The notes under the pieces: model-generated
The model's input: only the letters and a program-made list of their open reading frames with translations
Databases searched by the model: none
Told to the model about the DNA's origin: nothing
Translations under genes and position numbers: made by a program
Source of the DNA: Escherichia coli
Lineage (GTDB): Bacteria > Pseudomonadota > Gammaproteobacteria > Enterobacterales > Enterobacteriaceae
Strand: one strand, 5' to 3'
Assembly (NCBI RefSeq): GCF_003334255.1
Contig: NZ_QOWU01000286.1
DNA length: 201 nt
Shown here: positions 1-201 of the stretch, in pieces
How positions within the stretch are numbered: position 1 is the first letter of the stretch
Layout: each line of letters starts with the position of its first letter

Positions 1-201
1 GTGGCGCAACGGCCAGAACCTGTACCTGGACAATATGGAGGCCACGGGCTTTTACCGGGTGCCCCTGTCCTCTGCACTGCCGGGCGATATCCTGCTGTGC
101 TGCTTCGGCGCATCGGTGGCTAATCATGCCGCCATTTACTGCGGCAACGGTGAGCTGCTTCACCATCTGCCTGAACAACTGAGTAAACGGGAGAGGTATT
201 C
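1..201 (+). CDS. K: Phage tail tip assembly protein K homologue (lambda gene K family, NlpC/P60-type C-terminal region); internal fragment, truncated at both window edges
   Basis: Seen in sequence: the phase with codons at 2-4, 5-7 ... 197-199 is open across the whole window and gives 66 codons with no stop. Phase 1 has TAA at 121-123 and phase 3 has TGA at 180-182. Third-position G+C is about 47 of 66 codons, and 9 of 10 Leu codons are CTG, which is typical enterobacterial/lambdoid coding usage. Established knowledge, recalled from memory and not searched: the translation closely resembles the C-terminal part of phage lambda K, especially the segments WRNGQNLYLDN, PGD-hydrophobic-LLCCFG, NHAAIYCG-x-GELLHH and PEQLSKRERY. 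Exact identity cannot be computed here. Confidence 0.88.
83..166 (+). other. NlpC/P60 papain-like peptidase signature block within the K homologue (His motif and downstream polar residue)
   Basis: Seen in sequence: codons 80-88 encode P-G-D followed by hydrophobic I-L-L (89-97); codons 122-139 encode N-H-A-A-I-Y; codons 143-166 encode G-N-G-E-L-L-H-H. Established knowledge: this matches the canonical NlpC/P60 pattern (GD-hydrophobic ... H-x-G/A-I-Y-x-G-x-G ... H), in which the first His is the catalytic His and the later His is the third polar residue. The catalytic Cys normally lies about 50 residues N-terminal, so it should be upstream of this window. Confidence 0.7.

Follow-up and report, generated by a model that had tools for sequence, protein, structure and literature searches.

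The window, that is, the whole 201-base stretch of DNA analysed here, has a G+C content of 58.7%, which agrees with that of the left arm of phage lambda (56% over 9-23 kb) and of its gene K (59.5%). Frame +2 (bases 2-199) is the only one of the six that stays open from end to end, and it encodes 66 residues (WRNGQNLYLDNMEATGFYRVPLSSALPGDILLCCFGASVANHAAIYCGNGELLHHLPEQLSKRERY). By our own estimate, an open frame of 66 codons would arise by chance at about 0.04 per frame at this composition, so that its existence alone is weak evidence and homology is decisive. Compared by BLASTP with K of lambda (J02459), 56 of these residues are identical (85%, E 9e-44), the window aligning with lambda K residues 98-163, and the two DNAs share 81.8% identity over 198 nt (blastn). 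Moreover, the translation matches PHROG_30, 'minor tail protein' (E 6.1e-39, profile positions 440-505), and the Pfam family NLPC_P60, PF00877 (i-E 8.2e-6, model positions 39-87 of 105). Most of the base differences from lambda (26 of 38) affect the third codon position of frame +2, leaving all but 10 of the 66 residues unchanged; this third-position excess, together with the small number of replacements, points to a coding sequence under purifying selection in this frame.

Thus, positions 1-201 of the + strand, with codons at 2-199, are occupied by a fragment of a lambda-K-type gene (tail tip assembly protein K, 'C40 family peptidase'), in which the two hallmarks of the lambda K family, similarity to gpK and an NlpC/P60 domain with conserved active-site residues, are both found. 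The window is, with high confidence, an internal piece of such a gene, belonging to the tail-tip module of a lambdoid phage or prophage of E. coli or a very close relative. A preliminary description, made from the letters of the window, had assigned its whole length to a K-family gene and had proposed a protein match to lambda K as the check; the BLASTP and PHROG results given above bear out both the assignment and the match. The only ORF listed mechanically, in frame +1 at 1-123, is regarded as a chance occurrence, since homology and codon-position bias lie entirely in frame +2. An Rfam search of the window returned no family (the best score, for Bcj11, had an E of 0.89 and lay far below the gathering score), no promoter-like or terminator-like sites were found in it, and its repeats were limited to one 11-nt pair, taken as chance.

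The K proteins of related loci comprise 247 residues, of which the window encodes residues 146-211 (window residue 1 being residue 146). In the full-length relative that is 98% identical to the window, Pfam places a Prok-JAB domain at residues 3-105 (E 8.9e-15) and NLPC_P60 at 111-224 (E 3.3e-13); the window lies wholly within the C-terminal NlpC/P60 (C40) domain and covers that half of K only. The catalytic cysteine, Cys121 in the numbering of the relatives, lies 25 codons upstream of the window, as does the whole JAB/MPN domain, and both are attributed to the window's own copy by extension from these relatives. A search of 1.84 billion representative proteins yielded 2796 relatives, and residue conservation was assessed on an alignment of 102 full-length homologues, 33-59% identical. 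In this alignment, the residues of the JAMM motif (E19, H68, S69, H70, S78 and D81), those of the C40 triad (C121, H187 and H199) and also H200, D174, F162 and S206 are each invariant or at least 90% conserved.

All six of the conserved residues that fall within the window are intact (F17, D29, H42, H54, H55 and S61 of the fragment). The codon CAT at 125..127 (+) specifies His42 (His187), the catalytic histidine of the Cys-His-His triad, which is conserved in at least 90% of the 102 homologues and in 108 of 113 sequences, and aligns with the catalytic-site histidine motif of the endopeptidase 4xcm; its catalytic role is assumed here from what is established for NlpC/P60 enzymes such as MepS/Spr. 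CAC CAT at 161..166 (+) encodes His54-His55 (His199-His200), both at least 90% conserved. His54, which aligns with the terminal histidine of the 4xcm motif, follows the catalytic histidine by 12 residues, a spacing that presumably marks it as the third triad residue of MepS-type enzymes (His119 and His131 in MepS). Furthermore, GAT at 86..88 (+) encodes Asp29 (Asp174) of a 'PGD' motif placed before the NlpC/P60 core beta strand; this aspartate is nearly invariant among the 102 homologues and is present in 109 of 113 sequences.

The AlphaFold2 model of the 98% relative (pLDDT 97.4, pTM 0.91) is consistent with this two-domain organization. One half of the model matches MepS/Spr, LytE and the Acd autolysins, with a Foldseek probability of 1.00 for MepS, LytE and Acd33800, and the other half matches the deubiquitinases JAMM1, AMSH and CSN5; a PDB profile search agrees with these fold matches. 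A PDB sequence search found no solved structure of K itself. In line with membership of the NlpC/P60 superfamily (PF00877, MEROPS C40), a papain-like fold is thus predicted in the model of the relative, and the two histidines are found in the window.

The preliminary description had also held that the K fragment is the only feature of the window. This stands in so far as K is coding throughout, and falls short at the 3' end, where GGGAGAGGT, at 189..197 (+), is the probable Shine-Dalgarno sequence of gene I, judged from its homology to a GAGGT for which the lambda imm21 record (OM418625) gives the annotation ribosome_binding_site of I. An ATG located 7 nt past the position of the window end opens, in the 98% relative (L001), an I ORF of 226 aa (L001 12208-12888), which shares the final ~100 nt of K but is read in a different frame. 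RefSeq places the start of I at this locus at 12307, where K ends. The match to PHROG_32, 'tail assembly protein', begins at residue 13 of the 226-aa ORF, so that the upstream start is needed to account for it. The lambda-type upstream ATG is probably the real start of I, and the RefSeq call would be too short, clipping the ubiquitin-like domain.

The surroundings of K were established from 25 related loci, 95.5-98% identical to the window, with which the lambda proteins were compared by tblastn; for three of these loci the annotation was read as well. At every locus whose flank extends far enough to show it, the order is (H)-M-L-K-I-J, all on one strand, as in lambda itself (H-M-L-K-I-J-lom). 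L was present upstream of K at each of the 22 loci with sufficient flank; on the other side, I overlapped the 3' end of K at 22 out of 22, and J came after it at all 20 loci that extend that far. The expectation that L- and M-like genes would be found upstream, and I- and J-like genes downstream on the same strand, is therefore realised in the relatives and in lambda. For the window's own copy, the same neighbourhood is a well supported prediction, made from the arrangement of these relatives.

L is not always adjacent to K, as a 2.2-kb cassette separates them in 4 of the 25 loci (L006, at 2560-4810, and also L004, L009 and L020). This cassette carries genes for an Ant-type antirepressor (PHROG_245, E 1.5e-104), an Arc-family DNA-binding protein and a YlcI/YnfO protein, as well as a ClpP-like protease on the opposite strand, and looks like an immI-like module placed amid the tail-tip genes. 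An OmpC-like porin gene was likewise observed between M and L in four loci (L006, at 5710-6873, and also L005, L008 and L012); its product has 387 aa and scores 496.7 bits against the NCBIfam model 'porin OmpC', for a cut-off of 484.

At one further locus of the 25 (L017, NZ_CP010135.1), sodC is placed between I and J and reads in the opposite direction (10079-10606), and type III effector genes (NleB family and EspK) come after the tail fibre genes (16705-18201). The record, from E. coli and 91.6 kb long, is labelled as a plasmid and includes a complete lambdoid head-tail module; the chromosome of the same strain also holds a 97% copy of the window.

The comparison with lambda brought out a discrepancy in the reference sequence (J02459/NC_001416), in which K is annotated with 199 aa (14276-14875) and 148 nt are left after L. 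The DNA that follows L in J02459 nonetheless encodes residues 1-45 of the 247-aa form, in another frame and with 91% identity; this missing N-terminus (5129-5276 of the extracted locus, L003, about 14128-14275 of the record) comprises 45 JAB residues, including the conserved Glu. In lambda imm21 (L018, OM418625, 1535-2278), the one record aligned, a single extra G near J02459 position 14267 (GGAGGCGTATTT versus GGAGGC-TATTT) joins the two parts into one 247-aa ORF in which the JAB domain is complete, although the OM418625 annotation copies the 199-aa form. Among the matches listed, 21 of 25 lambda-type records match over the extra base, and these include several independently sequenced isolates or derivatives. 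The 199-aa gpK is probably the product of a one-base error, or of a stock-specific mutation, in the 1982 reference, and is still carried over into more recent annotations. A literature search on this reading-frame discrepancy of lambda K found nothing relevant.

With regard to distribution, no identical 201-mer was found in the phage, plasmid, complete E. coli genome, IMG/VR, GTDB representative or metagenome collections. The best match among complete E. coli genomes is 98% identical (4 mismatches), is annotated as 'C40 family peptidase' and lies between L and I in a prophage. Among phages, megablast matches reach 96% (an Stx2a-converting phage); in PhiR12_2, which matches at 95.5%, the gene is named 'tail tip assembly protein K'. 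The best match among records labelled as plasmids reaches 97%. A 30-mer seed retrieved 13 IMG/VR loci at 96-98%, a 71-mer from the window retrieved none from the same collection, and a 40-mer seed retrieved nine gut and other metagenome contigs at 95.5-96.5%. The GTDB representative genomes gave no match to the window sequence, and a protein search with the 66-aa fragment returned short partial proteins only, none of them at 100%. Window matches are present in about a third of the complete E. coli genomes (1889 of 5426), with a median of 2 copies and up to 13.

Different stretches of the window are matched exactly by different alleles: the 5' third by one allele group (that of L001), the middle by others (L014 and the IMG/VR group), and base 43 by metagenome contigs. 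The window thus resembles a patchwork of known alleles, as would be produced by the ordinary recombination of lambdoid tail genes. The fragment of gene K is an ordinary, already described feature in which nothing departs from what is known, and the earlier judgement that it is not novel biology holds for this well-known gene of lambda-like phages and E. coli prophages.

The position of the window among known systems is best defined with respect to lambda gpK, which we take to be the UniProt entry TIPK_LAMBD. Both share 85% amino acid and 82% nucleotide identity, the same NlpC/P60 residues and, judging from the relatives, the H-M-L-K-I-J order; the window differs from lambda in the ten residues mentioned above and in that its allele belongs to the E. 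coli prophage/Stx-phage group. The K genes of this group (e.g. those of WP_175055555.1 and PhiR12_2 XSB41724.1) are 95.5-98% identical at the nucleotide level, align without gaps and differ in 1-4 aa, although none is identical over all 201 bases. The murein endopeptidases MepS/Spr, LytE and CwlO share with K the fold, the His...His part of the triad and its 12-residue spacing, but identity in structural alignments is only ~16-23%. K is also set apart from them by its fusion to a JAB domain, by its place in a tail module and by a substrate that is not known to be peptidoglycan; to our knowledge, neither a signal peptide nor a lipobox context has been described for K.

Two further relatives of interest belong to tail-like particles, and were compared by description only. 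Like K, g14 of the Rhodobacter gene transfer agent (RcGTA), which we take to be of NlpC/P60 type, and PA0639 of the F-pyocins are tail-module proteins, both at the K position, that have been reported as needed for the production of non-contractile tail-like particles or proposed to aid in their assembly. RcGTA g14 has been described as a small peptidoglycan-degrading peptidase (PMC7296036); unlike K, it has 150 aa, too few for both domains, and has been proposed to be carried in the tail channel. PA0639 has been described as a gpK homologue (bioRxiv 10.64898/2026.02.24.707460).

As to function, the experimental properties of lambda gpK are drawn from three sources (PMC12617516, PMC10721106, PMC12908700). 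The protein is needed for lambda tail assembly, but was not resolved in the virion, and its location is described as unknown (PMC12617516); neither was it detected in virions by mass spectrometry, which led to the proposal of a non-structural role (PMC10721106). Mature F-pyocin particles likewise lack the homologue PA0639 (bioRxiv 10.64898/2026.02.24.707460). In 2006, Iyer and colleagues predicted that the ubiquitin-like protein I is processed by K, a protein with both a JAB and an NlpC/P60 domain (PMC1779556), and gpK cleaves gpI according to a meeting summary.

From these elements, the following mechanism can be proposed. Gene K, located in the late operon in the order H-M-L-K-I-J, encodes a 247-residue, two-domain peptidase, formed by an N-terminal JAB/MPN (JAMM) metallopeptidase and a C-terminal NlpC/P60 cysteine peptidase, the window supplying the middle and later part of the latter with the two triad histidines. 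On the published evidence for gpK, K acts during assembly of the tail tip and does not stay in the virion afterwards. When I has become part of the tip complex, its N-terminal, ubiquitin-like domain would be removed by the JAB domain of K. The NlpC/P60 domain is probably an active enzyme, given that its active site is conserved across the K family, and the preferred reading is that it acts at assembly on a tail-tip protein, or else holds K on the tip complex; an assembly-time role is favoured because K is not in the particle.

The explanation that competes best with this account, and to which an appreciable though minority weight is given, accepts the same gene K and questions the element that bears it: the window could come from a defective prophage remnant, from a phage-plasmid or misassigned replicon, or from a tailocin-like element, so that it would be phage-derived DNA with no functional phage. 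The prophage holding the closest, 98% identical K allele itself looks defective (L001 1-5632 and 19666-21973), its portal gene being frameshifted and its tail region bearing two IS21-family insertions, one of which, the IS21-like ISEc10, separates the tail completion gene from the major tail gene, the other disrupting the tail-fibre region. Furthermore, 15 window matches lie on records labelled as plasmids, a single E. coli genome may hold as many as 13 matching copies, many of which, judging from O157-type prophages, are likely to be defective, and the F-type pyocins keep a K homologue. The state of the window itself argues in the opposite direction, as its frame is intact, all the conserved residues that it covers are present and its differences from the relatives are mostly synonymous; near-identical K genes are found, in addition, in inducible Stx-converting phages and in phages isolated as such.

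A second explanation, somewhat less probable and considered rather unlikely, concerns the activity and is the main rival to the assembly-time role: the NlpC/P60 domain could be a peptidoglycan endopeptidase that helps the tail to cross the cell wall when DNA is injected, a function that has been proposed for RcGTA g14, instead of an assembly-time peptidase. The nearest solved sequences and folds are indeed those of the murein DL-endopeptidases MepS/Spr, CwlO and LytE and of the Acd autolysins, and the triad is conserved in the 102 homologues. RcGTA g14, without which particles do not form, is also able to degrade peptidoglycan, and it is the tentative assignment for a density inside the tail channel (PMC7296036). 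The solved relatives and g14 both speak for a substrate in the cell wall rather than a protein one. An enzyme absent from the particle, however, could not act at entry, and against this possibility stand the failure to find gpK in lambda virions by mass spectrometry or to resolve it in any tail-tip structure (PMC10721106, PMC12617516) and the absence of PA0639 from mature F-pyocins (bioRxiv 10.64898/2026.02.24.707460). The fragment is not filed as a murein endopeptidase, given that its NCBIfam match to RipB is sub-threshold (15.9 bits, for a cut-off of 335).

As a third possibility, the NlpC/P60 domain could serve as a second, papain-like 'deubiquitinase', acting on I together with the JAB domain. 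It is one of two alternatives which, even when taken jointly, are regarded as improbable.

Finally, that the window might be a domesticated bacterial NlpC/P60 gene standing alone, away from any phage tail genes, as could be thought from the RefSeq name of its homologues, merely 'C40 family peptidase', and from the weak matches of the fragment alone to bacterial RipB/RipA-type NlpC/P60 models, is very unlikely to the point of being negligible, since prophage K genes, found between L and I at 25 loci, are 96-98% identical to it at the nucleotide level and since the PHROG tail family scores an E of 6e-39, against 0.0075 for the best bacterial model, and the preference for a phage K gene already expressed in the preliminary description is upheld.

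Read as part of gene K, the window serves as a practical flag for a lambdoid tail module, of use when the prophage regions of E. coli-like genomes are mapped. It also touches on a general question of the K family, namely the role of a conserved NlpC/P60 site in a protein that is absent from the virion. A role of the deubiquitinase type, if true, would apply to the whole K family and not to the window alone.
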